DNA from: Candidatus Sumerlaeaceae bacterium
GTDB taxonomy: Bacteria > Sumerlaeota > Sumerlaeia > Sumerlaeales > Sumerlaeaceae
Reading direction: 5' to 3'
DNA: 64,000 bases
NCBI GenBank assembly: GCA_051003195.1
Contig: JBPCLP010000025.1
Span: 67,616 to 131,615 of the forward strand
The stretch's first letter is position 1. Each line of letters opens with the position of its first letter. Below the pieces are notes generated by a model, which saw only the letters and a program-made list of their open reading frames with translations, made no database searches and was not told the origin of the DNA. Both the position numbers and the translations under genes were made by a program. Shown piece after piece: positions 6,543 through 21,846 of this stretch.

Positions 6543-7697
6543 ATGGCCAAGCGCCTGCTTTTTACCTCTGAGAGTGTCTCCGAAGGTCACCCGGACAAGG
6601 TTTGCGACCAGGTTTCCGACGCAATCCTGGATGCCTTGCTGGCGCAGGACCACAATAGCCGCGTGGCATGTGAATGCCTTGCGACAACGGGGCTCATTGT
6701 TGTCGCGGGCGAGATCACGACCAAGGCAAATGTGGACTACACCACGATTGCGCGCCAGACGGTAAAAGAAATCGGCTATACCTCCGACGACATGGGTATC
6801 AACGGCGACACATGCGGGGTGCTGATCGCGCTGGACCGCCAGTCGCCCGACATCGCCATGGGTGTGGACTCAAGCGCCGATAAGGAACAGGGGGCGGGCG
6901 ACCAGGGCATGATGTTCGGCTACGCAACCAGGGAGACCCCTGAGCTGATGCCGCTGCCAATCAGCATGTCGCACGAGCTGCTGCTGTTGCTCAGCCAATT
7001 GCGCCATTCGAAAAAGCTGCCCTACCTGCGCCCGGACGCCAAGAGCCAGGTGACGGTTGAATACGTGGACGGGAAGCCCGAGCGCATTCACACCATTGTT
7101 ATATCGACACAGCATTCACCCGATGTGGAAACAGGACAGATACGCGAAGACGTACTAAAGCACGTCATTCCGCAGGTCGGCGACAAACTTGGCTATTCGA
7201 CAAAAGACATCATCCTGCACGTAAACCCGACCGGTCGCTTCGTCGTTGGTGGACCGCACGGCGACACAGGGCTGACCGGTCGCAAAATCATCGTGGATAC
7301 GTACGGCGGAATGGGTCGGCACGGCGGCGGTGCATTCAGTGGCAAGGACCCCAGCAAGGTGGATCGCTCGGCAGCCTACGCCGCTCGGTGGGTTGCCAAA
7401 AATGTTGTTGCTGCCGATCTGGCGGAGAAATGCGAAGTGCAGGTGGCGTATGCCATCGGGGTCTCAAAGCCGGTCTCCATAAGCGTGAATGTGGATTCGT
7501 TCGGCACCGCGAAAATGGATGACGAAAAACTCACGAAACTTGTGGAGTCGTCGTTCGACTTATCCCCTCGCGCCATCATCCAGCAACTGGACCTGCGGCG
7601 CCCCGTATATAAGCCGACTGCGAGCTACGGCCATTTCGGTCGTACCGGTGATGGCTTTACATGGGAGCGGACAGACATGGTGGAACAACTGAAGTAA
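6543..7697 (+). CDS. metK: S-adenosylmethionine synthetase
   Basis: [33 protein letters not shown] plus glycine-rich [35 protein letters not shown] upstream. 384 aa. Confidence 0.95.
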
Positions 7698-7815
7698 CCG
7701 GCAAAGCGCTCCACGAAGCACCGCAATCCGCATGGGAATGCCCGTCCTGCGGAATCTCTTGATCGCGTCTTAAATACGAATTCGTGTAAATGTGTGAGCC
7801 TCGTGGATACTGCCT

Positions 7816-9687
7816 GTGCTGCTTCGCACCTGCACGCGCGTGTTCATGCATAGTTCTAATCGCGCCACGGTGGGTACGCGTCAGTCGGCGCTCATGCGCT
7901 GGCTGATTCTTGCAGTTGTCGTAGTTTATGCATTCCGTTACCTGGGGCTGGCACTTCACCGCGCGCCTAACCCTGACGAGCTGCAAAGTCTTGTGAATGC
8001 ATTCGATCTTTCACGCGGCTTGCGGCTCTATCTCGATTTCTGGGACAATCACGGCCCCGCGCTGACGTGGCTGCTGGCGCCGCTGCTGCACTGGTGGCCG
8101 GACGATCATAACGTTTTCTTTGTCGCCCGGATGGTAGCATGGGGCATGGCAATGCTGACGGCATTGCTGGTTTACAAATGTGCGCAAGTCGCGTTTCCCT
8201 CAAGCCGGATTGTGGCACCCCTGGCCGCGCTGCTGTTTGTCGTATCGACACCGGTCATGGCGCACGGCATCGAGATTCGCCCCGATAACTGCGTGCTGTT
8301 ACTGTGGGCTGGTTGTCTTCTTGCGCTGATACACGGCATCCGAAGCGGCCGGGGGCGATGGTGGATGGTTGCAGGCTTGCTGCTTGGCTGCTGTGCCGTT
8401 TTCACGATCAAAGTGCTGCCGTTGTGCGTGTGCGTCATTCTACTTTTCGCCGGCGCGTGTTGGATCCGCAGGTATCAGGCAGATGAAAAATCGCCGGCAT
8501 TCGACCGCCCCTCAGTCCGCAACCTGCTTATGTTTGCGTCCGCGTTTAGTTTGCCGGTCGCCGTATTACTTGGGTGGATGTGGCTCTCCGGCTCGTTGGA
8601 AGCATGGTATCTTTGCGTTATCCAGGCGAACGTGGATCGGCAGGAACGCGCGGGGCTGAGCCCTTTTACTGAACTTTTCGAAGGTGCACCGATCTGGATC
8701 GGGTTGAGTTTTGCGAGCATCGGACTCGCATTGCGCCGCTGGATTGGCGGCCGTGCCGGCGCCGAACTTCTTCTCGTCGGGCCCGCCGCGTTTCTGCTTT
8801 TCCAGTTTGCGTTTCTGCTGCCGACCAAATTCTTGAGCTCACTGCTGTCGGCCCAGGTGCCACAGGCAATTCTAAGCGCCTGGTTCGTGTGCGAGCTTGC
8901 ATCCAAAGTAGCCGCGCGCGCACCCGAACCGCTGAGATGGCTCGCCGCGCAGTCTATGCTCCGAAGAGTTTCAGTGGCTGCAGTCTTTGCTGTGCTTGCG
9001 TTTGCAATGCGGTGGGAATGGCAGCGAGAAGAAGTAAGGTATGGCAGGTTTTATAATACAGAAGGCGTGGCGTATGTTAAGTTCGCCAATGACGTGGCCG
9101 GACGTTTCGGTCGCGGAGAGACTGGGTTTGATCCGAGTGGCTATGTTTTCCTGCGCGAAAAACCCGGGCTTTTCCACATCCTTGTTACTTTCATCAGGCG
9201 GATGCACAGCGAAGGCTTCATCGATCTGCAAATCCCGGCGCTGCTGCGCTCCAGCAATTGCAAATATGTAATTTACGATGCTCGTGCAAACAGTCTCAGA
9301 CCCCGGGATGTTGCGTATCTGCGCTCGCATTTTGTTCCGGTCGATCAAGTTACGATAGCGAAGCAACCGGCGGTCCTCGCAATTGCGGGGCACCGCAGCT
9401 CGCCATCGGGCCAGACAAGCGCGCCGATTTCGGCAGTGTACGCCGCCCATTGGAAATTGGGAACGAGGTGGCAACGGACTCCGCTCGGTTTCCACTCAGC
9501 AGGCAATAGCATAGGCATGCCGCCAAACGTATGGCTGCTCGCTGCTGACAATCGTCCCCGGTCCGCGCCCCCGGCGCAAATAACCGGCTGGTCCGCGTTC
9601 AAAGAAGCTGGTAGTGAAGAGCGTCCTGGCCGAGAGGCTGCACCCGCGTGGTTTACACGCTACAAGGCGATTGCTGTTGAGCGATGA
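7816..9687 (+). CDS. polytopic membrane protein, GT-C-fold (ArnT/PMT-like) putative glycosyltransferase with soluble C-terminal domain
   Basis: About 10 hydrophobic helices in the first ~330 aa. An acidic loop follows helix 1 (NPDELQSLVNAFDL). The real start is probably the internal Met near 7894 (MRWLILAVVVVYAF). Family assignment is weak. Confidence 0.5.
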   Translation: MLLRTCTRVFMHSSNRATVGTRQSALMRWLILAVVVVYAFRYLGLALHRAPNPDELQSLVNAFDLSRGLRLYLDFWDNHGPALTWLLAPLLHWWPDDHNVFFVARMVAWGMAMLTALLVYKCAQVAFPSSRIVAPLAALLFVVSTPVMAHGIEIRPDNCVLLLWAGCLLALIHGIRSGRGRWWMVAGLLLGCCAVFTIKVLPLCVCVILLFAGACWIRRYQADEKSPAFDRPSVRNLLMFASAFSLPVAVLLGWMWLSGSLEAWYLCVIQANVDRQERAGLSPFTELFEGAPIWIGLSFASIGLALRRWIGGRAGAELLLVGPAAFLLFQFAFLLPTKFLSSLLSAQVPQAILSAWFVCELASKVAARAPEPLRWLAAQSMLRRVSVAAVFAVLAFAMRWEWQREEVRYGRFYNTEGVAYVKFANDVAGRFGRGETGFDPSGYVFLREKPGLFHILVTFIRRMHSEGFIDLQIPALLRSSNCKYVIYDARANSLRPRDVAYLRSHFVPVDQVTIAKQPAVLAIAGHRSSPSGQTSAPISAVYAAHWKLGTRWQRTPLGFHSAGNSIGMPPNVWLLAADNRPRSAPPAQITGWSAFKEAGSEERPGREAAPAWFTRYKAIAVER

Positions 9688-9954
9688 GGGCCGCGATTTG
9701 CAGCATTAGTAGTGGAGCAGGAACACTGATTTTCCGGTAAACATTCGGCCTCTTTGTCAGTAGATGGAAAGGACTGCGGCTGCCCAGGGCTGTCTCGCGC
9801 GCGTAAGCTTCTCTTCGTAAGTACCGGCGTCTTGTACAACAGGTATAACTTACTTGACGTGCAGAGTACGGTAACCATAGATTTTACGCCAGAAGACGGC
9901 TGGTACGCCATCACTTGTCGCAGCCGCAGAAACAGATGTGGGAGCTAGATTCTT

Positions 9955-12798
9955 TTGAGGCCAACCGGTTTGAAACCAGCTTTTCTGTTTTTCATGTCCC
10001 TGTTGCTTTTGTGCACTGCCGCCGTAGCCGCGCCGAACGACGGTACTTTTAAGGTTCGTGTAGCCAGGGACTTGAAAAAAGAGGCTGCCGACAGCATCAC
10101 GGCGGAACTAAAAAAAGAAGGCTATACGCCGGTGGATATCGTCCCGTCTGCCAGTGGATTTACCGTACTGGTGGGCGCGGCGCGAACAAAACAGGAAGCC
10201 CAGGTGCTGGCAAAAGACCTGAAGTCGGCCGGCTTCACAACGGAAGACATTGAAGAGCCCGCCGCCGCAGGCGCAACTGCCGGCGCCGGAGCGCCAGCAG
10301 TATCGGCAGACACCAGCGGAGGCACAACGGCATATCGCGTGCTGGTACACGAGTTTCCAAAGTCGGAGCAGGCCGAGCAGGGAAAAGAAAACCTGAAGGC
10401 CGAGGGTTTCACGAACGTCGATATCACTCCTGAGGACGGCAAATATAAGTTATACGTCGGCACTTTCCCGCAGCAGTCCGACGCACAGGCGCTTCTGAGC
10501 CAGATCAAAGGCGCGGGGTTTGCGATGGCGCAGGTTGCAACCATTGCCCGCCGACCGGATGCGAAGTCTGAGTCGGCTGCTGTGCCGCCACCGCTTGCAT
10601 CTTTGCCGGCAAATCTTTCCGCCTCGCAAAAGAGCGATGCGCAAAGCCTGCTCGACAGAGCTAAACGTGCAGATGCGGGCGAAATGAGTTATGCCGAGTA
10701 CCAGGAATTTGTAAAAGAACGCCAGCGCCAGAGCAGTGGCGTCAAAATGCTGATTGCAGGCTATGAGAAGGACCTCGGCGAGAAGCGGGAAATCCAGAAC
10801 AAGACCTGGTCGCTCTACCGCGAATTCGACAACCTGTTGGAGTCGCGGCGCTATGATGCGGCCCGGCGCAAGCTGGATGAAGTCCGCGCAGTTGATCCAA
10901 AGGATGCCTACCTCCCGGCAAAGCAGGAGCGGTTGTCGATGCTGATGGGTTCCGGCGGTGGAACTGGAGCACCTGTTGTCGCGCAGGGTTCTGCGGCAGG
11001 TCCAAGGCCCAACGGCCCCAAACCAGCCGATCCGGAAGCCGTGCAGCAGATGCTCGCCGAAGCGCGCAAGGCTGAAGGCGAGGGACGCAACGAAGCAGCC
11101 CTGGCGCGTTATAACAAAGTGTATGAGCTGGATGCAACTCACGTGGAAGCGCGCAGCAAAATTGCAGAGCTGAACGAAAAGCTTAAACCGCAAGCCCCCG
11201 CGGCTGCGGGTACCAACCAGAAGCTGATCTACGGGGGCGGCGGGTTGCTGGTCGTTGTCATCCTGGCGCTCGCATACTGGAATTTCGTGAATGGCCGCCG
11301 CGAGAAGAAACTTGAGCAGCAGGTGCGCGAGTTGGCGCAGCACGGCAGCGTCGGCGCCCCTGCGCCTACACCTGCTTATGGCGCATCTGCGCAGACGTTC
11401 GTGGATCCCCTGGCACCGGGCGGCATGTATAGTGCCGGCTCGGCGGCCACAGCAGGAGCTGGAATGAGCGGCATGGGAGCGGCAGCCATGGGTGACATGG
11501 GCGGCTCAGGGAAGCTGTTTGCCGGCGGAATGGATATGCCGGGCATGGGCGCGATGATCGGCGGAGCGGAAGATGAGAGTGATGAGCGCGAAGAAAAGCC
11601 GGCCGCCGCACAACAAACTTTCGAAGCCGAAGAAGTGGGCCATGACGAGGATGTGGTGTCGCTCTCGAGCTTGAATTTCGATGGGCTGCAAATGGGTGGT
11701 GACGAGCCGGATGTCGAAGTAAGCGCCAACGACACAGCGCCGGTGTTACCACCGCCGGGGTCTGATTCGCTTTCCCTGGGTGACCTGGACCTGGGCTTTG
11801 GTTCGGCCTCTGCTCCCTCTGCTCCCTCTGCTCCTACGCCTGTGCCTGCGGAGCCGGTCAACGCCTCTTCGCCATCTATGTCGATGCCCGACCTGGACCT
11901 GGACGCACTGCTGAAAGGGACGTTTCCCGGGGCAAGTGCTGCAGCGCCGGACATGCCGTCCGCGCGCATCCAGGACATTTCTCCCGTGCAGTTGCCGTCG
12001 CTCGGAGAATTGACTTCCACCCAGGAAGAGAGATCGATCCATGATGAGCTGACCCTGCGTGAAATGAACGCTGGCGGCCTGGCTGCTGCCATGGGTGGCC
12101 TTGGGACCGCGCCGACGGTGCACATTCCAACACCTTTCCCTCAGCACGAATCCCTGGGTGGTGGTTCAGCCGGTGGAGCATCGCAGGCGCCTGTCGCGGC
12201 AACTTCAACCGCGCCCGCGGCTGCGGCAAACGCAAGTCACCACGAGCAAACGTTTGACCAGGAGCCCGTCGGATCGCAGCCCGCAAACTGGACGGGTGAT
12301 TATGAGTACGCGTCCCTTACGGTCGACGATCAGAATTCCGTGGATGGCACAGGACGCTGCCTGAAGTTTGAAAAACGTTCGGGTGCGGGAAGCGCAAGCT
12401 ACCACTGCAACTTTCCCAATGCCTCAGGTCAGGTGACTGTCGAGTTTGACATTCGGTGCGACGACAAGAACAAGTACCTGCTGGGATTCTATGTCGAAAA
12501 GGACGAAGACTTTAAGCAGTCGGTTCACACAATCGTGCACCGGATTGATTCGCGGAGCCAGCCGTCGCTGCGAATCCAGGGCGAGCCTGTCCCGTATGAG
12601 CTTGGCAGTTGGCGCCGTGTGAAGTACGAGCTGAACCTGCTGATTGGCGTGGTGAACGCATTCGTGGACGAGCAGCACGTCGTTAAAGATGCGAAGTTGC
12701 CGACGATTCCTGCCTATGTGAACACGCTCTCGATTCGCGATAACCTCGCCACGACTGGCCTTTTTTACCTGGATAATATTCGGATTACGCGCCGCTAG
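9955..12798 (+). CDS. SPOR-domain-containing membrane protein (three N-terminal SPOR-like repeats, coiled-coil/TPR-like middle, TM helix, Gly/Ala/Met-rich linker, C-terminal beta-sandwich-like domain)
   Basis: Signal peptide. Three ~75-aa repeats of SPOR type (FKVRVARDLKKEAADSITAELKKEGYTPVDIV; YRVLVHEFPKSEQAEQGKENLKAEGFTNVDITPEDGKYKLYVGTFPQQSDAQALLSQIKGAGF). TM segment LIYGGGGLLVVVILALAYWNFV. Low-complexity tract GMSGMGAAAMGDMGGSG. TTG start at 9955 (ATG alternative at 9994). Confidence 0.75.
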   Translation: MRPTGLKPAFLFFMSLLLLCTAAVAAPNDGTFKVRVARDLKKEAADSITAELKKEGYTPVDIVPSASGFTVLVGAARTKQEAQVLAKDLKSAGFTTEDIEEPAAAGATAGAGAPAVSADTSGGTTAYRVLVHEFPKSEQAEQGKENLKAEGFTNVDITPEDGKYKLYVGTFPQQSDAQALLSQIKGAGFAMAQVATIARRPDAKSESAAVPPPLASLPANLSASQKSDAQSLLDRAKRADAGEMSYAEYQEFVKERQRQSSGVKMLIAGYEKDLGEKREIQNKTWSLYREFDNLLESRRYDAARRKLDEVRAVDPKDAYLPAKQERLSMLMGSGGGTGAPVVAQGSAAGPRPNGPKPADPEAVQQMLAEARKAEGEGRNEAALARYNKVYELDATHVEARSKIAELNEKLKPQAPAAAGTNQKLIYGGGGLLVVVILALAYWNFVNGRREKKLEQQVRELAQHGSVGAPAPTPAYGASAQTFVDPLAPGGMYSAGSAATAGAGMSGMGAAAMGDMGGSGKLFAGGMDMPGMGAMIGGAEDESDEREEKPAAAQQTFEAEEVGHDEDVVSLSSLNFDGLQMGGDEPDVEVSANDTAPVLPPPGSDSLSLGDLDLGFGSASAPSAPSAPTPVPAEPVNASSPSMSMPDLDLDALLKGTFPGASAAAPDMPSARIQDISPVQLPSLGELTSTQEERSIHDELTLREMNAGGLAAAMGGLGTAPTVHIPTPFPQHESLGGGSAGGASQAPVAATSTAPAAAANASHHEQTFDQEPVGSQPANWTGDYEYASLTVDDQNSVDGTGRCLKFEKRSGAGSASYHCNFPNASGQVTVEFDIRCDDKNKYLLGFYVEKDEDFKQSVHTIVHRIDSRSQPSLRIQGEPVPYELGSWRRVKYELNLLIGVVNAFVDEQHVVKDAKLPTIPAYVNTLSIRDNLATTGLFYLDNIRITRR

Positions 12799-12813
12799 TG
12801 TGGTACCCCATTC

Positions 12814-12897
12814 AATTCGTTCACTGGTTTTGTGTGCCGTCCGAGCTCGAAAGCTTCCTGAAGTATAGCCATGAACTTCCGGGACGGCACACTAGAT
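12814..12897 (+). repeat. REP-like palindromic repeat, family 1 (diverged copy)
   Basis: ttcgttcactggttttGTGTGCCGtccgagctc...cgggaCGGCACACtagat. An 11-12-bp perfect inverted repeat shares GTGTGCCG/CGGCACAC arms, the left flank (tcgt..c.g.tttgtgtgccg) and the right end (cggcacactagat) with copies at 32411, 40897 and 57286. It starts 15 nt after the SPOR gene stop. Confidence 0.65.
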
Positions 12898-12987
12898 GAT
12901 CAGGGGTTAGGATGTGTGATGTACGACGTTTGCGCAAATCTGGAGTTGGCGCAGTCCATCCTGTCTCTGTGTGAAGGAATCTAGCGG

Positions 12988-15900
12988 TTGGATCTCGCAA
13001 TAGCACAGGAATTTCTCGACGAAGTAAATGCGAAAGCCGACGCGGGCGAACTCCTCAAGCGAATCGGCTATGCAAACGATAAAATCCAAGTGGTTGGAGA
13101 TGCCATCAAGGCATTTTGCCCGATCCATAAAGATAAGAAGTTTCGCTCGCTCCTTATTGAAAGCGGTAAACAGAGCTTCAAGTGCACGCTGAAGACATGC
13201 GCCGGCGCGCAGGGTGGAACCCTTGTGGAGCTTTATGCGCTGGCGCGTAAGATGGAGCCGCTGCTTGCGGGCGCTGAACTGGTGGGAGCGCTTGACCTCG
13301 CTATTGATCCCGAATGGACGAGCCAGATTGCGGCAGCCATGCTTGAGGAAGCACAGCAGGCATTCGTCAGGCGTGAACCTGAGCTGGCCGAAAGTGCTGC
13401 GCGCCGCGCGCTTAAGTTTCAGCCGACGCTTGCCGATGCACGTTTATTACTTGCGACGATGTTTGCCGAACGCGGCGAGATGGCGCAAGCTGTGGATGAG
13501 TATGCCGCCCTCGTGGAAGGCTATCTTTCCGCCTCGCAATATGAGGAAGCCGACCAGACGCTCGAAAGCGCGATCGCTGCATTTCCGGACAGCGAAGACC
13601 TGCTGTTTCTGCAGGTGCGTAGCGCCGAGCAGCAGAATCAAACGGATCGCGCCGTCGAGCTACTGAATGAGATCGTTGGTCGACGTGAGGCAACCAACCG
13701 CCAGATGGATAACGTTGGCGTGTTACAGAAAATTCTCGAGCTGCGTGCGGACAATGCGGATGCCCATGTAAAACTTTCGGAAATTTACGAGCAGCGCCAC
13801 GATATGCGCACGGCAGGCAAAGAGCTGGAGATAGCAGCCCGACTGCTGAAAGAACAGGGACGCAACGCCGACGCAATTCCACTTCTCGAAAGAGTTGTGA
13901 AACTTGCGCCTGAGATGGCGAAGACTCGCCTCGATCTCGCCGAGGAGCTGATTCGGGATGGCGATTATGCACGCGCCAAAGAACAGATTTTTGAAATCGC
14001 CAACCAGCAGATTGAGAACCAGAATTTCGCCGCCGCAGAATTAACAGCGCGTCGCTGGCTGGAAGTTGAACCGGAAAGTTTCGAGGTCCATGAGACACTG
14101 GCGCGTATCTACATGGACCAGGATCGGCAGTCGGAAGCCGGTGTCGAACTGAAACAGGCCGCCGAGTTTTCGCTGAAGCACGGTGAGTCGGAACGGGCGA
14201 TGCAGTTCTTCTTCAGGGTTAAGTTTGTAGCTCCGGAGAACCTCGAGGTACGCCGACAGATTATCAGCCTGTTTGAGCAGCAGGGAGAAACGGAGCGTGC
14301 CGGTTTCGAACTGCTGGACCTTGCTGAAGTGCTGCTGGGGCAATCAAATCCGGAGGAAGCAGAGCAGGCGCTTACCAGGGCCGCGGATATTACAGATTCG
14401 CGCGATGTGAAGCAGCAGGTAGCAGACACGCTGCTGTCCCACGGACGCAACGATGCGGCGGAACAGCTCCTCAGGCAGATAATCAGCGAGGCAGAAGCTG
14501 ACGCCGACCTGGCAGCGGTTGCCGATGCGAGCAGCACTCTGCTACAGATCCTGCCGGACGATGTGAGCCTGGCCTTTCGCCGATGCATGTGCCTCTGGGA
14601 GTGCGATCCGGACAGGGCGCTGGAAGAGACCGGAAGAGTTGTGGGCGATCTGTTGCAGGCAGGTGAACGTGAGAGTGCAGTAGATCTGCTGCGTAAGGGC
14701 GCTGCTTACGCATCCGAATACTGCGAAGAAAGCCTGGATTGTCTGCGACAGGCGTTGGGTGTGCAGGACGCTGAGTCCGCCGGGAAATTTTACTCTGCTG
14801 TAATTCACACCGTTGCGGAAGAAGATACTGAGGCAGCCCTGCAACTTGCTCGCGAGATGACAGCACTGGACCCTTCGCACGCAACGGCCCTGGCGGACTG
14901 CGGTGTGCTGTTCGCAAACGTCGGCATGACTCATGACTCTGCCGAGGCGTATGTTCAGCTTGCGAAAATCAGTGAGTCGACTGGTGACCGTGAACTCGCG
15001 CTGCAGCATCTGGAGGATGCGCTATCGCAGGAACCTGAGCACTTAACCGCGCTGCAGCGACGCGCAGAGCTCGCGCTGGCGCATACTGACGCCGACTCCG
15101 CGCGATCTTACTTTCAGGCATTCGTAGATGTACTCCAGGTGCGTGGTTCGGAAGATGAGCTACGGAGCGGACTGCGAACATACCTGGAATATTACCCGGA
15201 TGATCTCGCCGTGCAAATGCAGCTTGCATCGTTACTGGTTCAAGCAGGCGAGGAACAGAACGCGCTTGAAATGTACCTTCGGATTGCGGAGCATGCCAGC
15301 ACAACAGAAGCGGTCAGTCTCCAGGTAAACAGTCTGCAAAATGCAGTCGGCATCGCGGGGCGGGATGCGGCAATTCGGCAGCGCCTTGGAAAGGCTCTGA
15401 AACTTCACGGACAGGCGCAGGCTGCAGCTATCGAACTGCTTGAAGCCGCGCGACTTTTGTGCGAGTCGGGCAGCTTGTCCCAGGCGCGTACCGCAGCTGC
15501 TGAATCCGCAGAATCGGCTGACGATCCTCTCCAGGCGCTTGAGCTCCTGTGCACTATCGATGAGGAAATGAACGATCCCGAGCTGCTTGCAGAAGATCTG
15601 CCGCAGCTGATTGCACAGCTTCGCAGCGCTGGCCGTGTACATCAAGCTTTAGAACGGGCGAACCGGCTGCTTCAGCTGAAACCTGGTCTGGTAAGCCAGC
15701 GCATTGTCGCTGACCTCCGCGCCGAAAACGGCGACACAGACGAAGCGCTGAAGGAATACACGCTTCTTGCGCAGCAGTATGAGGAGCAGAAGGATTATCC
15801 GGAGGCGCTGGCCATTCATGCGGAAATGGCTCAACTGCGGGCGCCGAATCTTGATACGCTGCATCGGCTTGTTCGGCTCGCGGAAAAGACCAGTCCCGAA

Positions 15901-18900
15901 GCGGCGGCTTCGGCGAAGCTGCAATTAGGCCAGGCTTTGCTCGCATCTGGAGATGTGCTGGGGGCATTTGAAACCGCAAGAACGCTGGGTAAGCAAAACA
16001 CCGGTGTCCTGGCCGCGGCGATGCTGCTGCAAAAAATTGGACGGGCTGCGGGCACATTGGAACAGGCGCTGGAAGCTTTTCTCGCCGCCGCCGAAGCATA
16101 CGCGACGTTCCCTGAAAAATCGGAAGCCAAGATCGAGTGCCTTGAAGCGGCCCTGGCGCTTGATCCCGAAAACACCGCCGCGCACCAGATGCTCGCTGAG
16201 CATTACGAAGCCGCGGGAGAAGCGGATTTCGCATTCTCGCACCGTGTCGCATTACTGCCCGTGGCAGCCGGATCGAAAAAACAGAATGCCTGGAAACAGG
16301 AACTTGCAAAACTGCGTGTGCTGGCAGCCGATGATCCGGGCAAGCACCTCGAGCTTGGCAGGCGCGCGCTTCGCAGCGAGCAGGTAGCATATGCACTGGA
16401 GGACTTTGAAAAGGCCGCAGAGTTGGGCGCCGCAGCCGGGGATGATCCTGTTGTCCTGGAGTCCGCCGACGCTGCAGAGGCACTGGTGTTTAACTCCGTG
16501 GTGTTATGTCGCGCGAAATTTGACGTCCTGCTTTCTTCCGGTGATAAGGAAGTTGCGAAAGTATGGCTGCGCGAATGTGCGCAACAGGCACTACGAAGCG
16601 ACAAGGCCTCCGAAGCCGAAGACTACGCACAACGATGGATTGAACTCGACCGCGCCGATGCCGATGCGCTGGAACTGCTGGCGGCTGCCTACCAGAAACA
16701 GAACCGTACCCAGAAAGCCGTGGATACTTATATTGCGCTGGCTAATCTGCTTAAATTTGCTGGCGATTACGAGCGTTCCATCGCTATTCTTCGTCAGTGC
16801 CTCGCCGTCGACGATCAGTCCGTCCCAGCGCGACAGCTCCATTGGCAGGTGCTGCTTGAGGCAGATAAGCAGAACGAAGCATTACAGGAGATGCACCAAC
16901 TGGCTGACTTGCTGATTGAGCGGCAGTCATACCGCGACGCTTGTACGCTGCTATCGCGAATTCTCGATTATCGCACGAACTCCGAGCAGACGCTGGAGCG
17001 CCTGGCTTCTCTTGTTCACGAACACGAGGGATTCGCGAAGGCCTCCCCATACTTTAGAAAACTCATTCAATTGAAGAGTGCGACACTTCCGGCGGACCAG
17101 ATGGCGGCCGAGTACGAACGCATCTTGAAGCTTGAAGGGGTCGATGCCGAGTTTCGCCGGGAATATGCGGACTTTTTAAAAGCGCAGGGGCTGCTGCCCG
17201 ATGCCAAGGAACAATACCTTCACACCGCACAGGTGTACCGCGACGAATTGAATTCTCCCGAAAAAGCAGTCGAGCTTTTCATCCTTGCCGTGGAACTGCT
17301 TCCAGAGAGCGGCGACTCTCCCATCTACGAGGAAGTGGCCAGGCTGCACCAGGCATCAGGCAATCTGGAGGACGCGGTCGCAGCCCTCCGGAAAGCATCG
17401 AGACAATACATTGCTGCAGGTGAGAGCAAAAAGGCGGTGCAGTCTATCCGCAGAGCCCTGGAGATAGACATCGGTCAGGACCGAGCGGCGGACGAGGCTC
17501 TCCTCGCTCATGCACTGGTTGCAGCGGGGGAAAAGAAAAAGGCGAAGGAAGCGTTTAACCAGGCGTTCATAAAAGCGCAGTCGCCAGACAGCTCTCTTCC
17601 AGAATCAGTGCAACGCGAAGTCTACACGACACTTTTAGCGGCTGATCCGCTGCATGTGGAAAGCGCTCTTGCGCTGCTGGCGCTCTTACCAACCGGCGAT
17701 GTTGCGCCGTCTGCGCTGGAGACCCTTGGCGCTTTCAAGGAAGCAGGGCGTCACGAGGATCAAATTCGTATTCTCAAGGCGGCACGCTCCGCCGCACCTG
17801 CGGATATACAGATTCGTCAGGAGTTGGTTGGCTTATACAGGTCGCGCGGCGATACTGCGAAATTGCAATACGAGCTCGCCGACCTTGTGCGCACTGCCAG
17901 CGCCGCAAAACAGCATGATCATGCCCGCGAGGCGCTGGAAGAGCTTACGTGTCTCCCGCCATCGGCCGACCTTAAGCTGCAGGTAGCGCCGCTCTATTTT
18001 CAGCTCGAGGATGAGGAGCAGGCCGTCGCCGCCTACTGCAGCGCTGCTGAGCTTTTCGAGGAAGCGGGGCAGAGCGACGATGCGGTGGATGCTTTGCGGC
18101 ATGCACTCCAAATCAATGGCAACTCGGTACCTGCCGCCCTCGTTGCTTCGCTGGCGCGCAAGGGAGGCGCCGAGGTTCGAAAGATTGCGCGCGACATTCT
18201 CGAAGCGGCATTGATCGCCCGCACACGTACAAGATCACTGGTACTCGCGGTGGCCCTTTTGGAACGAGAACCCCTGGAGGAAGCAAAGCGGCTGCTGAGC
18301 ATGGTTTTTATGCGCGGCGGTGCAGGGTTTGTCGCCGCGATTGCCGGAACCCATGCGGACTGGCTGCTGGAAGCGGGAAGAAGCGACGATACCGCAGGGG
18401 TTGTGACGTTCATAACGCAATTGGCTCCGAACTCACCGGATGTATGGTGGCTCGCGTCCCAATTGAGAAAGCGCTGCGGCGACAAAGCGGGTTCCGCCGA
18501 GGCCGCACTGAAAGCGGCACAGCTATACAATGAAGCTGGCGCCGTTTCTGAGGAGGAGAGCTGCTACCGCGACGTTTTGGACGAGATTCCGGAAGACGCG
18601 GCGACGCTACAGACGCTGGCGTTTTTTTACGAACGCGAGAAGCGCGGTGAAGAAGGCATCGAAGTCATGCGCCGGCTGGCTGCCATCGCGCATAATGCAG
18701 GCGATGTAACCGGCGGATTAAGCTGGCTGCGGAAGGCGCTTGATTTGGGCCCCTCCCAGGATGAGTTGCGCGCGCAATACGCAGAACTGCTTCAGGTTGC
18801 CGGCAAATCTGACCAGGCGCTTGAGCAATGGCTGGAGGTTGCGCGACGCAGCGCCAAGACTGGAATCCCGGACCGCGCAGTCCACGCCTACCAGAAGGTA

Positions 18901-21846
18901 CTGCAGCTGGAGCCGGAGAACGAACACGCCCTCAGCTTCCTCCTGGATGCAGCAACGCGAGCTGGCGATGAAGCCGAGGTCCGCCGGCTCTCGCTCATAT
19001 TGGCAGAGATTAAAGCAGAAACCGGCGCAGTCATGCAGGCGTGTCAGCTTTTGAAGAACCTGGTACAGAAAGATCCCGGCAACATCGAAGCCCTGGAAAA
19101 ACTGTCGGCATTTTCGCTGCTGGCACACGATGAAGAAGGACACCGCGTTGCAGCGCTGAATCTCGGCAACAGGCTGGTAAAGCGCGGCGATTACCTGCGC
19201 GCCATGGAGCAGCTGGAATCGGCACTCGAGTACGACACCAGCAATCTCGAAATCCTCCAGACGCTGATCGACTGCTGCGCAGCCGAAGGTATCCTGGATC
19301 GAGGCGCTTCCTTCGCGATGCGTATGCTACAGGCCGCGAAAGCCGCTGGCCAGCCGGAGCGCGTGCGCCAGGCAGCCAGCACTATCCTCGGCTACGACGA
19401 GCAGCACACCATTGCGCGCCGCGAACTGGCTGAGGCGCTACTGTGCATGAACCGCCTGCCCGATGCCATTGCCGAATGGCAGCGTGCCGCAGAACAATTG
19501 GTATCTGATAAAAACCCGGCCTATGCGCTGGAGTGCTACCGCAGGATTGTGCAGGTCAGCCCCTCGCATATCCAGGCATGGCGCAAACTCGGCGACCTAT
19601 CCCTGCTTACCGGTGATTCAGACGCTGCGCGCGGCGCCTATCTGCATCTGCTGGAAGTGTACTCCCAGTCCGGCGAAATTGAAAAAGCTGATGCGATGAT
19701 CGCACGAATGCTTCAGCTGGACCCAGAGGACGCAGAACTACACCAGGAAGCGCTGGATGCATACAGGCGGACTGGTCGCAATGAGCACGCGATGGAGCAG
19801 GTGTTATGGCTGGTTCGGGATGCGATGGCAGCCGACGATCACGAAGAAGCCGAGCGCCTCATTGATCTTGGCAATGCCATTGCGCCGGACAGCCTTGCGT
19901 TGCAGCAATGCCAGCTGGAGGTCATCCGCAAACTTGGACGGACCGATGAGCTGCAATTGCGCCTGCGAGAACTTGCCGACAAGATGCTGCACGCAGGGGA
20001 ATTGCAAAGAGCAGCCGATGTGCTCGAGCAGATGCGAGACGCAGATCCCGAGAACATAGAGCTGCGAAAGGAAATTGCATCCACACGGATGCAGCTCGGT
20101 GAAATTCCACCAGCCATAGCAGAATACGCCTATGTCCTGCGCGAACTGATCCAGCGGCAGGAAACAGAGGAAGCACGAAGCACGGCGGACCAGATAGCGG
20201 CGCAATACGCCGACGTACTGGAGCTGCGAGCGCGCATCGGTGAAGTCTTTGCACAGAACGGCATGGCGGACGTCGGTTCCCGTCACTACATGGCGTGTGC
20301 GGAACTGGCCTACTCCGCAGAGGACCCGCTGGCGCAACTTCATTTTCTCCGCCTGGCCGTTGATGCACGACCGCGCTGGGCAGAGGGATACGAGAAGCTG
20401 GCGGAGGCGGCCCTAGCCGCCGATGACACGCAGGCGGCAGACACCGCATATGGGTCACTGGCCGAACTTTTAATAGAAGCCCGTAAATTTCCGCAGGCAG
20501 CTGCCACTCTGCGCACGCAGATTTCCCTGTTCCCAAAGCATGAACTTCCGCGTGCCCGATTAGTCGATTTATATGAGCGCACCGGAGATCGTGAAAACGA
20601 GGCGGTCGCTCTCCGCGAACTGGCAGACTTATACATTGCTGGGGGGATGATGGACGAAGCAGTCGAGAGCTATAAACGGCTGGTTACGCTTCGGCCTGAC
20701 GATCCGAAAACCCTGCAGAGGTATATTGAGCATTTCGCGCAAGTCGGAAACGAACTTGAAATCGTCGGCGAGTATCTGCGGCTTGCGCAGGCCTACGCCG
20801 CCAGCGGGAAATTGCAGGAGGCAATCCAGACGTTCGAGCAGGTCGCGTCCATTGACCGCAAAAACCCTGAGATTCATGAGAAGTTTGCCGCGTTACTGCT
20901 CACAAATGGTCAGAAGGGCCGAGCACTGGCAGAGCTGCGAAAGCTCGCGGATATTTATCAGCAGAAAGGTGAAATGGACGCCGCGGTCGAAGTGCTTCAT
21001 GCAGGACTGGCTCTGGATCCAGAGAACGCGGAATTGTGCCTGACGCTTGCGTCGGGTCAGCAAAAGTGTGGACTGCGCGACGAAGCGCAAACCAGCTACG
21101 CTCGCGCAAGCAACATTCTCAGTGGCACGACGGCAGTAAAAGCCATGGATGTTTACCGTGGAATGCTGGCGCACGATGAAGAGAACACCGAGATACGGCG
21201 CCGCCTGTGTGATTTGCTGGTCGAGTCGGGTGAACCTGCCGATGCCGCCGCTCACGCACGGAAGCTTGCTGAAATCCACTGCGGACGTGGTGAGATGGAT
21301 GACGCCGAAGACGCATATCGTATCGCTTCGGAATTGCAGCCGGAATCAGTCGATGCCTTAATGCAGGAAATTCAGAAGCATGCGCGCGATCCGTTTCTTC
21401 AGTACCTTGCCTACATTCGCCTGGGCAATCGGTTGTTCGAGGATGGCGACATTGATAGAGCTCTCGACACTTACCGCACAGCGCGATCGTTGAATGACGA
21501 ACGTCCCCAGACCATCCAGAAGTGTGTGGATTGTGTGAGCCTGATTGCTCCCGAGGCTGAAGCAATTCCCGATTACATCGCGCTGGCCGAGCGCTACATG
21601 GTGGCTGGCGATCCCGCACGCGCACGCAAGGTTTACGAACACATTGCGCGACTTGACCCATTTAACGCAGATGCAGGCAGAGGCCTTGTCGCTGCTGTGC
21701 AAGCAGAAAACGGTGCGAGATCGGTGCACAAGGCCGACACACGGCACGATCGCCAGGTACTTGGCCGTCGCGAACGCAAGAAGCGCGTCGGTCTTGAGGA
21801 GTTACTGTCTGCCTGTAAAGACGCCGCCGCACAGGAACGTCACTGA
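12988..21846 (+). CDS. giant tetratricopeptide-repeat protein (2952 aa) with N-terminal primase-type CHC2 zinc-finger-like motif
   Basis: Single uninterrupted ORF. Residues ~44-80 read CPIHKDKKFRSLLIESGKQSFKCTLKTCAGAQGGTLVELY, resembling the DnaG zf-CHC2 pattern CPFHxEKTPSFxV...KQxxHCFGCGxxGxxIxF. The remainder is helical TPR-like repeats (recurring AxxxxxxAL/LxxxP periodicity, very high Ala/Leu/Glu content). Confidence 0.85.
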   Translation: MDLAIAQEFLDEVNAKADAGELLKRIGYANDKIQVVGDAIKAFCPIHKDKKFRSLLIESGKQSFKCTLKTCAGAQGGTLVELYALARKMEPLLAGAELVGALDLAIDPEWTSQIAAAMLEEAQQAFVRREPELAESAARRALKFQPTLADARLLLATMFAERGEMAQAVDEYAALVEGYLSASQYEEADQTLESAIAAFPDSEDLLFLQVRSAEQQNQTDRAVELLNEIVGRREATNRQMDNVGVLQKILELRADNADAHVKLSEIYEQRHDMRTAGKELEIAARLLKEQGRNADAIPLLERVVKLAPEMAKTRLDLAEELIRDGDYARAKEQIFEIANQQIENQNFAAAELTARRWLEVEPESFEVHETLARIYMDQDRQSEAGVELKQAAEFSLKHGESERAMQFFFRVKFVAPENLEVRRQIISLFEQQGETERAGFELLDLAEVLLGQSNPEEAEQALTRAADITDSRDVKQQVADTLLSHGRNDAAEQLLRQIISEAEADADLAAVADASSTLLQILPDDVSLAFRRCMCLWECDPDRALEETGRVVGDLLQAGERESAVDLLRKGAAYASEYCEESLDCLRQALGVQDAESAGKFYSAVIHTVAEEDTEAALQLAREMTALDPSHATALADCGVLFANVGMTHDSAEAYVQLAKISESTGDRELALQHLEDALSQEPEHLTALQRRAELALAHTDADSARSYFQAFVDVLQVRGSEDELRSGLRTYLEYYPDDLAVQMQLASLLVQAGEEQNALEMYLRIAEHASTTEAVSLQVNSLQNAVGIAGRDAAIRQRLGKALKLHGQAQAAAIELLEAARLLCESGSLSQARTAAAESAESADDPLQALELLCTIDEEMNDPELLAEDLPQLIAQLRSAGRVHQALERANRLLQLKPGLVSQRIVADLRAENGDTDEALKEYTLLAQQYEEQKDYPEALAIHAEMAQLRAPNLDTLHRLVRLAEKTSPEAAASAKLQLGQALLASGDVLGAFETARTLGKQNTGVLAAAMLLQKIGRAAGTLEQALEAFLAAAEAYATFPEKSEAKIECLEAALALDPENTAAHQMLAEHYEAAGEADFAFSHRVALLPVAAGSKKQNAWKQELAKLRVLAADDPGKHLELGRRALRSEQVAYALEDFEKAAELGAAAGDDPVVLESADAAEALVFNSVVLCRAKFDVLLSSGDKEVAKVWLRECAQQALRSDKASEAEDYAQRWIELDRADADALELLAAAYQKQNRTQKAVDTYIALANLLKFAGDYERSIAILRQCLAVDDQSVPARQLHWQVLLEADKQNEALQEMHQLADLLIERQSYRDACTLLSRILDYRTNSEQTLERLASLVHEHEGFAKASPYFRKLIQLKSATLPADQMAAEYERILKLEGVDAEFRREYADFLKAQGLLPDAKEQYLHTAQVYRDELNSPEKAVELFILAVELLPESGDSPIYEEVARLHQASGNLEDAVAALRKASRQYIAAGESKKAVQSIRRALEIDIGQDRAADEALLAHALVAAGEKKKAKEAFNQAFIKAQSPDSSLPESVQREVYTTLLAADPLHVESALALLALLPTGDVAPSALETLGAFKEAGRHEDQIRILKAARSAAPADIQIRQELVGLYRSRGDTAKLQYELADLVRTASAAKQHDHAREALEELTCLPPSADLKLQVAPLYFQLEDEEQAVAAYCSAAELFEEAGQSDDAVDALRHALQINGNSVPAALVASLARKGGAEVRKIARDILEAALIARTRTRSLVLAVALLEREPLEEAKRLLSMVFMRGGAGFVAAIAGTHADWLLEAGRSDDTAGVVTFITQLAPNSPDVWWLASQLRKRCGDKAGSAEAALKAAQLYNEAGAVSEEESCYRDVLDEIPEDAATLQTLAFFYEREKRGEEGIEVMRRLAAIAHNAGDVTGGLSWLRKALDLGPSQDELRAQYAELLQVAGKSDQALEQWLEVARRSAKTGIPDRAVHAYQKVLQLEPENEHALSFLLDAATRAGDEAEVRRLSLILAEIKAETGAVMQACQLLKNLVQKDPGNIEALEKLSAFSLLAHDEEGHRVAALNLGNRLVKRGDYLRAMEQLESALEYDTSNLEILQTLIDCCAAEGILDRGASFAMRMLQAAKAAGQPERVRQAASTILGYDEQHTIARRELAEALLCMNRLPDAIAEWQRAAEQLVSDKNPAYALECYRRIVQVSPSHIQAWRKLGDLSLLTGDSDAARGAYLHLLEVYSQSGEIEKADAMIARMLQLDPEDAELHQEALDAYRRTGRNEHAMEQVLWLVRDAMAADDHEEAERLIDLGNAIAPDSLALQQCQLEVIRKLGRTDELQLRLRELADKMLHAGELQRAADVLEQMRDADPENIELRKEIASTRMQLGEIPPAIAEYAYVLRELIQRQETEEARSTADQIAAQYADVLELRARIGEVFAQNGMADVGSRHYMACAELAYSAEDPLAQLHFLRLAVDARPRWAEGYEKLAEAALAADDTQAADTAYGSLAELLIEARKFPQAAATLRTQISLFPKHELPRARLVDLYERTGDRENEAVALRELADLYIAGGMMDEAVESYKRLVTLRPDDPKTLQRYIEHFAQVGNELEIVGEYLRLAQAYAASGKLQEAIQTFEQVASIDRKNPEIHEKFAALLLTNGQKGRALAELRKLADIYQQKGEMDAAVEVLHAGLALDPENAELCLTLASGQQKCGLRDEAQTSYARASNILSGTTAVKAMDVYRGMLAHDEENTEIRRRLCDLLVESGEPADAAAHARKLAEIHCGRGEMDDAEDAYRIASELQPESVDALMQEIQKHARDPFLQYLAYIRLGNRLFEDGDIDRALDTYRTARSLNDERPQTIQKCVDCVSLIAPEAEAIPDYIALAERYMVAGDPARARKVYEHIARLDPFNADAGRGLVAAVQAENGARSVHKADTRHDRQVLGRRERKKRVGLEELLSACKDAAAQERH

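Follow-up and report, generated by a model that had tools for sequence, protein, structure and literature searches.

The window analysed here, a 64,000-nt stretch of a contig from a Candidatus Sumerlaeaceae bacterium, contains two consecutive reading frames whose positions, lengths and strand are those given in the initial annotation (Table 1). The first encodes a SPOR-domain protein and the second a giant protein made almost entirely of TPR repeats. The spacer between them measures 189 nt (12799-12987), and a scan of this gap found no terminator-like site. It holds a long inverted repeat that is present in the MFE fold, although folding of the spacer as a whole falls short of significance (z=-1.1), and a Shine-Dalgarno-like sequence precedes the start codon of the giant. 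Upstream of the SPOR gene, the promoter scan is weak, with 2 sites found versus 1.0 expected. The gene downstream of the giant is convergent. The shared strand, the 189-nt gap, its lack of a terminator-like site and the convergent downstream gene all support a linkage of the pair. The neighbourhood is populated by many envelope genes, including PMT_2 glycosyltransferases, a lipid A acyltransferase, Wzy_C and prepilin-like proteins.

Table 1. Features of the two-gene locus (positions in the window; res, residues)
Feature	Position	Strand	Basis
Sigma-70-like promoter candidate TTGACG-18-TAGATT	9854..9883	+	Consensus scan, 9/12 matches; in 267-nt gap 5′ of SPOR gene
Gene 1, predicted bitopic SPOR-TM-linker-ConA-like protein	9955..12798	+	ORF, 947 aa, TTG start
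Signal peptide, res 1-26 (...LLLLCTAAVAA/PNDG)	9955..10032	+	Hydrophobic N-terminus, R/K in n-region; cleavage site inferred
SPOR domain 1, res 30-94, predicted periplasmic	10042..10236	+	PF05036 E=1.7e-7, model positions 3-70/76
SPOR domain 2, res 125-189, predicted periplasmic	10327..10521	+	PF05036 E=5.1e-11, model positions 3-70/76
Predicted periplasmic helical charged region, res ~200-420, one weak TPR-like motif	10552..11214	+	Composition; Pfam TPR_11
Sole TM helix, res 424-446, then RREKK	11224..11292	+	Kyte-Doolittle scan; TM and R/K flank kept in orthologues
Acidic low-complexity linker, res 448-760, predicted cytoplasmic	11296..12234	+	Composition: A/G/S/P/M-rich
C-terminal ConA-like beta-sandwich, res 762-946, predicted cytoplasmic	12238..12795	+	AF2, Foldseek
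Long inverted repeat GTGTGCCGTCC ... GGACGGCACAC in 189-nt spacer	12832..12892	+	Read from sequence; no T-run behind
Shine-Dalgarno-like GAAGGAA	12973..12979	+	Read from sequence; 8 nt ahead of the giant's TTG
Gene 2, predicted cytoplasmic ZBD-TPR giant	12988..21846	+	ORF, 2952 aa, TTG start
DnaG-type CHC2 zinc-binding domain (ZBD), res 1-108	12988..13311	+	PF01807, family profile, AF2, Foldseek
ZBD ligand codons C44, H47, C66, C71	13117-13119, 13126-13128, 13183-13185, 13198-13200	+	
Near-continuous TPR array, res ~115-2905	13330..21702	+	Pfam TPR_19, TPR_14, TPR_11, TPR_8, TPR_2, TPR_1, others
C-terminal basic tail, motif R(V/I)GLxDLLxACxDAA	21703..21843	+	Common to P0001, P0011, P0012, P0014

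From the N-terminus, the product of gene 1 consists of a signal peptide and two SPOR domains, then a helical region and a single TM helix, and finally an acidic disordered linker that leads to a ConA-like beta-sandwich. This architecture is identical in every orthologue examined. SPOR domains bind denuded (i.e., peptide-stripped) glycan strands, which are enriched at division septa. Against PF05036, the whole protein scores 54.7 bits (cut-off 21), with two full-length domains of 31.9 and 43.2 bits; of the three SPOR repeats originally counted, two are thus complete and the third Pfam stretch is partial. NCBIfam returned weak matches to RlpA/MPL36 alone, through the SPOR part, and the TPR_11 match at residues 377-410 (E=1.7e-4) lies under the gathering score. 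The TM helix was found as announced, and the RREKK behind it places the C-terminus of the protein, by prediction, in the cytoplasm. Judged from its sequence, gene 1 would therefore encode a type-I bitopic envelope protein with a cytoplasmic ConA-like domain. The linker, previously described as Met/Gly-rich, does contain 5% Met and has Gly among its abundant residues, but with 41 D+E versus 12 K+R it is better termed acidic and A/G/S/P-rich. Both its length and its composition differ among orthologues.

The C-terminal domain, for which a beta-sandwich had been suggested, is 54-72% identical among orthologues and has no match in Pfam or NCBIfam. Its AF2 model (pLDDT 94) adopts a ConA-like fold, which Foldseek relates to lectin and CBM jelly rolls (E~1e-9, TMq up to 0.70). 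At E<=1e-3, 392 PDB matches were obtained, led by sialidase CBM-like domains (TMq 0.63-0.70), legume lectins and CBM11. Sequence identity to these proteins is merely 8-16%, hence the resemblance is one of fold alone. Carbohydrate-binding modules, for which a ConA-like fold is characteristic, usually lie outside the cytoplasm.

The product of gene 2 has the same sequence as GenBank MGI8906879.1, 'tetratricopeptide repeat protein [Candidatus Sumerlaeaceae bacterium]'. Current annotation of these proteins goes no further than 'tetratricopeptide repeat protein' or 'hypothetical protein'. A likeness of its N-terminus to the CHC2 zinc finger of primases had been noticed from the sequence, and it exceeds chance. 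PF01807 matches the first 120 residues taken alone with E=7.6e-4 and 19.7 bits, short of the gathering score (24.9); within the family, it matches 37 of the 48 members (E<0.01; best E=1.1e-9), P0035 reaching 26.5 bits. TIGR01391 (dnaG) also matches the giant (E=1.7e-3), over the first ~92 model positions only. When the family profile was compared with the PDB, the sole matches were the primase ZBDs 2au3 (2.8e-5) and 1d0q (5.3e-4). The AF2 model of the domain (pLDDT 92.8) was likewise assigned by Foldseek to 2au3 and 1d0q with a probability of 1.0 (TM 0.57-0.65) and to no PDB structures other than primase ZBDs, and all its matches in BFVD are phage CHC2/primase proteins.

The domain carries the motif CPIHKDKKFRSLLIESGKQSFKCTLKTCAG, in which C44, H47, C66 and C71 form the pattern C-x2-H-x18-C-x4-C. 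A zinc-finger score and conserved Cys/His residues, whose absence had been set beforehand as grounds for refutation, were both found: the score is primase-specific and the four ligands are invariant in 150/150 family representatives. The spacer from His to Cys is of 18 residues in 129/150 representatives. The CxxxxC second pair reported in place of CxxC is also the rule, with x4 in 129/150 representatives and a range from x2 to x6 across the family of the giant. The whole ~100-residue domain is shared with DnaG and phage primases (PF01807 Zn_ribbon_DnaG / zf-CHC2; Aquifex aeolicus 2au3, Geobacillus stearothermophilus 1d0q), including the N-terminal helices, the four-stranded zinc ribbon with C-x2-H ... 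C ... C, the GG motif behind the second knuckle and the C-terminal helices, whereas the second knuckle is C-x4-C in the giant and C-x2-C in primases. In the conservation profile of the giant, this domain ranks with the most conserved segments. Its zinc-ribbon segment (residues 41-70) is basic, with 8 K+R versus 2 D+E, and basic positions 41, 53, 61, 62 and 65 are conserved. On the strength of these profiles and of the structural model, the first ~110 residues are a genuine but divergent DnaG-type CHC2 ZBD with putative zinc binding. Zinc ribbons can also serve protein-protein contacts instead of DNA binding.

Unlike in DnaG, this ZBD precedes ~2850 residues of TPR. Neither a TOPRIM/DnaG catalytic domain nor a helicase-binding domain was matched in the giant by Pfam and NCBIfam profiles. 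A role as a primase is ruled out for a protein in which the ZBD comes without TOPRIM/RNA-polymerase or helicase-binding domain and TPR begins at about residue 115. The near-continuous TPR character first proposed is borne out by TPR_19 (7e-72, 238 bits, 16 stretches) and TPR_14 (1e-65, 211 bits), with TPR_11, TPR_8, TPR_2 and TPR_1 also above the Pfam cut-off. The giant is collinear with its orthologues over its full length, its best-conserved TPR blocks lying at residues 2500-2900, and the tail motif is missing from the 2600-aa class. A hydropathy scan revealed neither a signal peptide nor a convincing TM helix. The single 19-residue window over threshold (1.63 versus 1.6), near residue 1549, sits within the repeat array and was not accepted as a TM helix. 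Given this and the predicted topology of gene 1, the giant and the ConA-like domain would share a compartment.

TPR arrays act as sensors in some defence NTPases, and primases of phages and plasmids often contain CHC2 domains. The pair could on these grounds be read as an anti-phage or conflict system, in which the giant would be a TPR sensor, its zinc finger detecting nucleic acid, and its partner a membrane effector or anchor. However, Pfam detected no AAA+ or Bac_DnaA domain, NTPase, nuclease or other effector domain in the giant, and because the long type has no such domain this explanation is refuted for practical purposes. In addition, neither protein matched any PADLOC family, mobile-element signatures are absent nearby, and the genes are single-copy, collinear and lineage-following amid housekeeping genes, which together make a defence function highly improbable.

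In ~18 independent Sumerlaeota loci (WIN, i.e., the window, L001-L005, L012-L014, L018-L026 and L028), a long ZBD-TPR giant is immediately preceded by the SPOR-TM-ConA gene. At three further loci (L027, L029 and L031), this gene is found 2.5-5.4 kb upstream of the giant, with a membrane+TPR gene sitting between the two. The check on co-occurrence of the homologues proposed with the initial annotation thus had a positive outcome. All relatives bearing a name belong to Sumerlaeota and, as far as these show, the two-gene module is restricted to this candidate phylum. The adjacency is not universal, since L015, L016 and L017 carry the SPOR-ConA gene without an adjoining giant, and ZBD-TPR paralogues without a SPOR gene occur at 13 loci. 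Both observations, together with the possibility that the 189-nt spacer houses a separate promoter, would suit two genes that work separately and owe their proximity solely to descent, one encoding a SPOR-type septal peptidoglycan protein and the other a TPR scaffold or chaperone-like platform of the cytoplasm with no relation to it. Nevertheless, adjacency and orientation have been kept across subfamilies that share no more than ~35-55% protein identity, while the genes around the pair vary from locus to locus. Moreover, both conserved modules are predicted on the cytoplasmic side, and the gap is free of terminator-like sites. Independent action consequently appears unlikely, and the two-gene architecture is well supported. 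The two products may interact physically, adjacency alone being no proof of it.

The paralogues lacking a SPOR partner are shorter, are encoded elsewhere and combine ZBD and TPR with domain III of DnaA, the AAA+ domain (PF00308 E~1e-64, TIGR00362 E=4e-96). The complete DnaA-type AAA+ domain stands at the end of these proteins, whereas the giant of the window has none. Its motifs are recognisable, namely the P-loop (GLGKT, the first Gly being replaced by Ser), Walker B, the Box VII arginine and sensor II, while DnaA domains I, II and IV are absent. Because the short paralogue has the ZBD and no SPOR partner, the ZBD cannot be a module specific to the pairing. The joining of the ZBD-TPR module to DnaA domain III suggests, at the level of domain composition, a link with replication.

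The architecture of gene 1 differs from that of known SPOR proteins. FtsN, DamX, DedD and RlpA share the SPOR domain, which is above the Pfam threshold in gene 1; however, FtsN, DamX and DedD are bitopic N-in/C-out proteins with a C-terminal SPOR, and RlpA is a lipoprotein, whereas gene 1 has N-terminal SPOR domains behind a signal peptide and a large conserved part predicted in the cytoplasm. A topology of the FtsN/DamX/DedD type was consequently discarded for gene 1, its SPOR domains being N-terminal and RREKK following the TM helix on the C-terminal side. A further parallel is offered by polar landmark proteins. HubP reportedly anchors the chromosome-segregation machinery at the pole. The defining elements of HubP and FimV are a PG-binding domain in the periplasm, a TM region, an acidic stretch in the cytoplasm and a TPR portion (PMC12918733). 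The overall logic of HubP/FimV/TspA, i.e., periplasmic peptidoglycan binding, one TM helix, a long acidic low-complexity region in the cytoplasm and association with TPR, is one that gene 1 would share (PMC12918733). However, the PG-binding domain is SPOR in gene 1 and LysM in HubP/FimV (Pfam gave no LysM match in gene 1), the C-terminus is an all-beta ConA-like domain in place of the TPR domain of FimV, and the TPR part belongs to a separate 2952-aa neighbour instead of the same polypeptide. Pfam and NCBIfam profiles detected no sequence homology to HubP/FimV, and the relation is one of analogy, not of membership. SgmX, PilF/PilW, PrsT and MamA are TPR solenoid scaffolds like the giant, with partial HMM matches that all stay far under the family cut-offs, but none has a primase-type ZBD, none comes near 2950 residues and several are periplasmic or lipoproteins, whereas the giant is predicted to be cytoplasmic. 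The fusion had been flagged as an undescribed architecture, and no paper describing a CHC2-TPR protein was found.

We tentatively favour, as a possibility short of a firm expectation, a peptidoglycan-anchored hub comparable to HubP/FimV that recruits a giant cytoplasmic scaffold and couples the chromosome or the replication machinery to the envelope or the division site. The periplasmic SPOR domains of gene 1 would bind denuded glycans, and the protein would thereby mark the septum or the new pole, as the HubP/FimV landmarks do through LysM; septal targeting is what known SPOR domains lead one to expect. The ~310-residue acidic disordered tether would reach into the cytoplasm and present the ConA-like beta-sandwich, which, as a guess, could dock the TPR scaffold of the giant. 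At the other end, the basic zinc ribbon would bind nucleic acid, most plausibly ssDNA as primase ZBDs do, or alternatively a replication-related partner. The outcome would be a chromosome or replication machinery coupled to the envelope or division site. The initial annotation had already put forward an envelope or division scaffold, the zinc finger serving either to tether nucleic acid or simply as a divergent Zn ribbon. This idea, still an inference, is now backed by the predicted topology and by the paralogue with a DnaA ATPase.

The anchored hub could also exist with a ZBD that is a structural or protein-interaction zinc ribbon, used to dimerise or to dock the giant on a protein surface, be it that of the ConA-like domain or of a different protein, in which case the module would organise envelope, pilus or polysaccharide machinery without any DNA link. 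The altered second knuckle is consistent with this, as are the envelope-gene-rich surroundings of the window and the membrane+TPR gene found inside the pair at three loci; however, the neighbouring genes are not kept with the pair at other loci. The TPR array also partially matches the envelope and pilus proteins PrsT, PilW, SgmX, LapB and GltE, yet all these matches are far under cut-off and amount to generic repeat similarity. Furthermore, the giant retains the entire primase ZBD fold, including its flanking helices and the conserved basic ribbon, and the paralogues fuse ZBD-TPR to a DnaA-type ATPase. A zinc ribbon with a purely structural or protein-binding role is therefore a serious alternative that we nonetheless consider somewhat unlikely.

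Returning to a coupling of the chromosome to the envelope, a more specific and rather improbable version can be proposed, in which Sumerlaeota reused the primase ZBD as the nucleic-acid-recognition head of a chromosome-organising TPR family. The short form, devoid of the DnaA-box-binding domain IV, would be a non-canonical replication initiator or its regulator. The long form, docked on the ConA-like domain of the SPOR-anchored protein, would tether replicating DNA or ssDNA, or else the origin or terminus, at the septum or the new pole.

The locus thus presents a primase-type ZBD without a primase, capping a scaffold of ~3000 residues, for which we found no published description, and this giant has been kept across a candidate phylum alongside a partner predicted to be anchored to the cell wall. 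Even with a ZBD that binds protein only, the HubP/FimV principle of 'landmark plus scaffold' would be extended to a SPOR-based version made of two proteins. If the target of the ZBD is DNA, the two proteins would connect envelope and chromosome in a novel manner, and this in a lineage with an unstudied cell biology. How Sumerlaeota start or control replication is a question raised by the paralogue, which has a DnaA ATPase but lacks the DNA-binding domain of DnaA. If the long form does tether DNA to the septum or pole, it would represent a previously unknown coupling of replication or segregation to division.

The initial annotation had described a SPOR-domain membrane protein directly followed by a giant tetratricopeptide repeat (TPR) protein, and both open reading frames were recovered at the same coordinates (see the table), separated by a spacer of 189 nt. 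A Shine-Dalgarno-like motif precedes the TTG start of the giant, no terminator-like site was found in the window spacer and the gene downstream of the giant is convergent. The spacer and the convergent neighbor are consistent with a two-gene operon, although they do not prove it. The spacer also contains a perfect inverted repeat, but the RNA fold of the whole intergenic spacer is no better than that of shuffled sequences (z=-1.1). The product of the giant gene is the same, residue for residue, as GenBank entry MGI8906879.1 ('MAG: tetratricopeptide repeat protein [Candidatus Sumerlaeaceae bacterium]'), which assigns the window to a MAG of Sumerlaeota (formerly BRC1). The database names for proteins of the two families are 'tetratricopeptide repeat protein' and 'hypothetical protein'. 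The remainder of the window is ordinary chromosome, encoding ClpX, IspH, MetK, RNase Y, LysRS, BamA, LpxC, a SurA-like protein and glycosyltransferases, with a cobalamin riboswitch. This riboswitch lies directly 5′ of a 268-aa ORF, which is followed by a prepilin-type N-methyl protein and then by a Wzy_C/O-antigen-ligase-like protein, an unusual gene set for a B12 riboswitch.

Features of the gene pair, of other window genes and of homologous loci (L numbers) in other genomes and metagenomes
Feature	Location	Strand	Details
SPOR protein gene	window 9955..12798	+	947 aa
Signal peptide	SPOR protein, residues 1-26		
Two complete SPOR domains	SPOR protein, residues 30-94 and 125-189		PF05036, 31.9 and 43.2 bits (cut-off 21)
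Charged helical region	SPOR protein, after the SPOR domains		one weak TPR-like motif
Single transmembrane (TM) helix	SPOR protein, residues 424-446		RREKK directly after
Linker	SPOR protein		313 residues, A/G/S/P/M-rich; 41 acidic, 12 basic
C-terminal, concanavalin A (ConA)-like domain	window 12238-12795		~185 residues; no Pfam or NCBIfam match
Acidic run EKDED	SPOR protein, residues 860-864		within YVEKDEDF
Spacer inverted repeat	window 12832-12892	+	11 bp, GTGTGCCGTCC ... GGACGGCACAC; ~39-nt loop, no T-run afterwards
Shine-Dalgarno-like GAAGGAA	8 nt 5′ of the TTG start of the giant		
Giant gene	window 12988..21846	+	2952 aa
Prepilin-type N-terminal methylation-motif protein	window 5516-6241	-	
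Cobalamin riboswitch	window 24436-24613	+	RF00174, 79 bits
ORF downstream of riboswitch	window 24649-25455		268 aa; no Pfam match
Prepilin-type N-terminal methylation-motif protein	window 25452-26096	+	
Golvesin C-terminal domain protein	window 45553-48360	-	935 aa; E=5e-25
SPOR orthologue with extra N-terminal domain	L002, 6380-9904		
SPOR orthologue with extra N-terminal domain	L003, 6225-9920		
SPOR orthologue with extra N-terminal domain	L005, 1418-4912		
SPOR-ConA or giant gene called as several genes	L012 (GCA_026005155.1, BPKN01000009.1), 4477-14986		
SPOR-ConA or giant gene called as several genes	L014, 7846-18646		
SPOR-ConA or giant gene called as several genes	L018, 6933-11887		
Short-type paralogue of the giant	L006, 9977-14062		

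The SPOR protein was initially thought to carry three SPOR repeats; two are complete and the third is only a partial stretch. Because SPOR domains act on peptidoglycan and positive charges directly follow the TM helix, the protein is predicted to be oriented N-out/C-in, which would put both linker and C-terminal domain on the cytoplasmic side. Conservation within the protein is highest in this C-terminal domain, with 54-72% identity in orthologues and 70 invariant columns among six sequences. A phmmer search with the single sequence against the PDB returned only noise. The early guess of a beta-sandwich was borne out by an AlphaFold2 model (pLDDT 94), which shows an all-beta, concanavalin A-like jelly roll. 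Its top PDB hits are CBM-like sialidase domains (E~1e-9, TMq up to 0.70), along with legume lectins and CBM11.

Within the ConA-like domain, one predicted strand bears a conserved run of alternating acidic residues. E99 never varies in either alignment; D101 and D103 do not vary among the six orthologues, and D101 is kept in at least 90% of 28 sequences. DDKNKY and SIRDNLATTG form further invariant patches. The acidic run recalls the metal/active sites of ConA-like glucanases, which would be odd if the domain is cytoplasmic as predicted. Three longer SPOR orthologues (1165-1232 aa) carry an extra periplasmic N-terminal domain (residues ~25-230; ...GRWQDxxNYY...FDNFIV) that looks like a LamG/DUF1080-type beta-sandwich, has no Pfam match at E<0.01 and is absent from the window protein. 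Elsewhere in the window, the protein with a Golvesin C-terminal domain also has a weak match to Amidase_3 (N-acetylmuramoyl-L-alanine amidase). Amidases make the denuded glycans to which SPOR domains bind.

For the N-terminus of the giant, the initial annotation had proposed a primase-like CHC2 zinc finger. Residues 1-120 match only PF01807 (Zn_ribbon_DnaG / CHC2) in Pfam, at E=7.6e-4 and 19.7 bits, which is below the gathering score of 24.9, and also match the first ~90 positions of TIGR01391 dnaG. An exhaustive HMMER search over 1.84 billion cluster representatives retrieved 219 relatives at E<=1e-3, including 122 at E<=1e-10. Among the best 150 of these 219, the domain starts at most ~100 residues from the N-terminus, mostly at residue 1-20; the putative ligands C44, H47, C66 and C71 are invariant in all 150, and their spacing, C-x2-H-x18-C-x4-C, is kept in 129. 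P45, L55 and G76-G77 are nearly invariant in the family, and 37 of 48 members match PF01807 individually (best E=1.1e-9).

A single-sequence phmmer search of the PDB with the giant N-terminus gave only noise. When a profile of 48 N-termini was compared with all PDB sequences, there were only two matches, both of them DnaG zinc-binding domains, from Aquifex (2au3, E=2.8e-5) and G. stearothermophilus (1d0q, E=5.3e-4), aligned over the ribbon and the C-terminal helices. The same two structures are the only significant PDB matches (probability 1.0, TM 0.57-0.65) of an AlphaFold2 model built from 28 family sequences (pLDDT 92.8), and every viral predicted structure that matches it is a CHC2 zinc-finger, primase or primase-helicase protein. 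In DnaG primases the second knuckle is C-x2-C, whereas in the giant it is C-x4-C, and the domain is followed by TPR repeats instead of a TOPRIM or RNA-polymerase domain. The fold and superfamily membership, together with the missing catalytic domain, indicate that this is a true zinc-binding domain (ZBD) and that the giant is not a primase. The ribbon segment has a strong excess of basic residues (8 K+R against 2 D+E over residues 41-70), and the family as a whole retains basic residues at positions 41, 53, 61, 62 and 65. From the sequence, we infer that the ZBD may bind both zinc and nucleic acid.

Beyond the ZBD, TPR repeats extend from about residue 115 to the end of the giant (Pfam TPR_19, 7e-72; TPR_14, 1e-65), as first proposed. 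The Pfam result was preferred because a home-made consensus count discriminates poorly, giving 54 against 38.6±3.7 in shuffles. No signal peptide was found in the giant, and a hydropathy scan flagged a single 19-residue window near residue 1549 (1.63 versus a threshold of 1.6), within the repeat array, which was not accepted as a TM helix. Assignments to PrsT, MamA, SgmX, PilW or LapB were rejected, the scores being far under the cut-offs and reflecting generic TPR similarity. Orthologues of the giant are collinear along their full length and are best conserved in the ZBD (50-58% identity) and at residues ~2500-2900 (up to 59%). Residues ~870-1170 are missing from a 2600-aa class, and members of the 2950-aa class have the motif R(V/I)GLxDLLxACxDAA in common at the C-terminus. 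Judged by sequence, the giants form a true orthologous family, beyond mere repeat similarity.

A scan with the closest N-termini, one genome per species, yielded 11 homologous loci, and a metagenome scan with a ~3060-aa subfamily yielded 28 more; HMMs for the ZBD and the ConA-like domain were run against all of them. The loci of the first scan come from Sumerlaeota/BRC1 MAGs, save one contig binned as Bacteroidetes (L011, PHDP01000010.1, 'Bacteroidetes bacterium HGW-Bacteroidetes-14'). Its alignment to the window giant equals, in length, identity and score, that of L001 (PHCB01000013.1, BRC1 HGW-BRC1-1) from the same study, so that its label probably reflects mis-binning or duplication, and it was rejected as a sign of wider distribution. 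Among the named matches, both families are thus confined to Sumerlaeota.

The two genes also co-occur in other loci. A SPOR-TM-ConA gene directly precedes a long-type giant gene on the same strand in about 18 loci, including near-duplicate contigs from related samples (the window, L001-L005, L012/L013, L014, L018, L019-L026 and L028). In L027, L029 and L031, it lies 2.5-5.4 kb upstream, with a membrane and TPR gene in between. SPOR domains were present in every upstream protein tested, and the TM-RREK-linker-ConA layout in every one whose sequence was read through. Flanking genes vary (Memo and rpoA/L17 in L012 and L014 versus MetK/PMT_2 and a methyltransferase in the window), implying that the conserved unit is the pair itself. 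The exceptions are L015-L017, whose three more divergent SPOR-ConA genes stand without an adjoining giant, and L030 and L007, where the limited upstream sequence shows no ConA gene before the giant. That the two proteins function independently is an improbable reading. It is still less probable, to the point of rejection, that the pair is a defence system, as it has no PADLOC matches and no effector domain.

Several assemblies break the SPOR-ConA gene or the giant into two to four called genes, and in L012 the ZBD forms a separate 112-aa ORF. These splits probably stem from frameshifts or assembly errors, which would account for many short 'hypothetical protein' fragments in databases. One of the two prepilin-type proteins of the window shares 54% identity over 81 residues with a protein encoded upstream of the SPOR gene of L002.

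Among the full-length relatives, about one in four is a shorter protein of ~1360 aa, and some are 1750-2150 aa long. The ZBD and TPR region of this short type (L006, L008, L009, L010, L034-L042; proteins P0035, P0024, P0044) is collinear with residues 1 to ~1000 of the giant, and these proteins end in a complete DnaA-type AAA+ domain, or domain III (PF00308, E~1e-64; TIGR00362 DnaA, E=4e-96 over model positions 100-340), for which the Hda model scores only 2e-24. The DnaA signature TFESFV..N, the P-loop GLGKTHL, in which the first glycine is replaced by Ser, Walker B LLLDDVQF, Box VII SDR and sensor II NIRDLKGA are recognizable, while domains I, II and IV of canonical DnaA are absent. The short-type gene occupies another genomic setting than the long type, downstream of nadC in L006, L008 and L009, and none of 13 short-type loci has a SPOR-ConA gene. 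Long and short types occur on one 425-kb contig (L025 and L038), which makes them paralogues within one genome. The joining of the ZBD-TPR module to a replication-initiator ATPase in Sumerlaeota makes a DNA- or replication-related role more likely for the ZBD, without proving it. The main rival, in which the ZBD is a protein-interaction zinc ribbon with no DNA role on an otherwise identical hub, is somewhat less probable than a DNA-directed ZBD.

The features that define HubP/FimV polar landmarks are a domain that binds peptidoglycan in the periplasm, a TM segment, an extensive acidic region in the cytoplasm and a TPR part (PMC12918733), and the SPOR protein follows the same design logic. It differs in having SPOR instead of LysM and a ConA-like domain instead of the FimV domain, and the TPR part resides on a separate giant protein. 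The pair combines SPOR domains, TPR repeats, the ZBD fold with its ligands and a ConA-like fold; membership in HubP/FimV failed for want of a LysM or FimV domain, in FtsN/DamX/DedD because of the reversed topology, and in DnaA because the giant has no AAA+ domain. Full-text literature searches retrieved no paper joining CHC2/zf-CHC2 with TPR, and the main Sumerlaeota genomics paper does not mention TPR, SPOR, DnaA or FtsZ.

The anatomy and homology of the two proteins can be stated with high confidence. A hub-plus-scaffold model with a DNA-directed ZBD is put forward more tentatively. In this model, SPOR binding to denuded septal glycans would place the SPOR protein at the septum or new pole, its tethered cytoplasmic beta-sandwich would dock the giant scaffold, and the basic zinc ribbon of the giant would contact either nucleic acid, with ssDNA the most plausible form by analogy with primases, or a client involved in replication. 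From its sequence, the pair, assembled from known domains, is classed as new both in its domain architecture and as a conserved gene pair, and its predicted function is testable.
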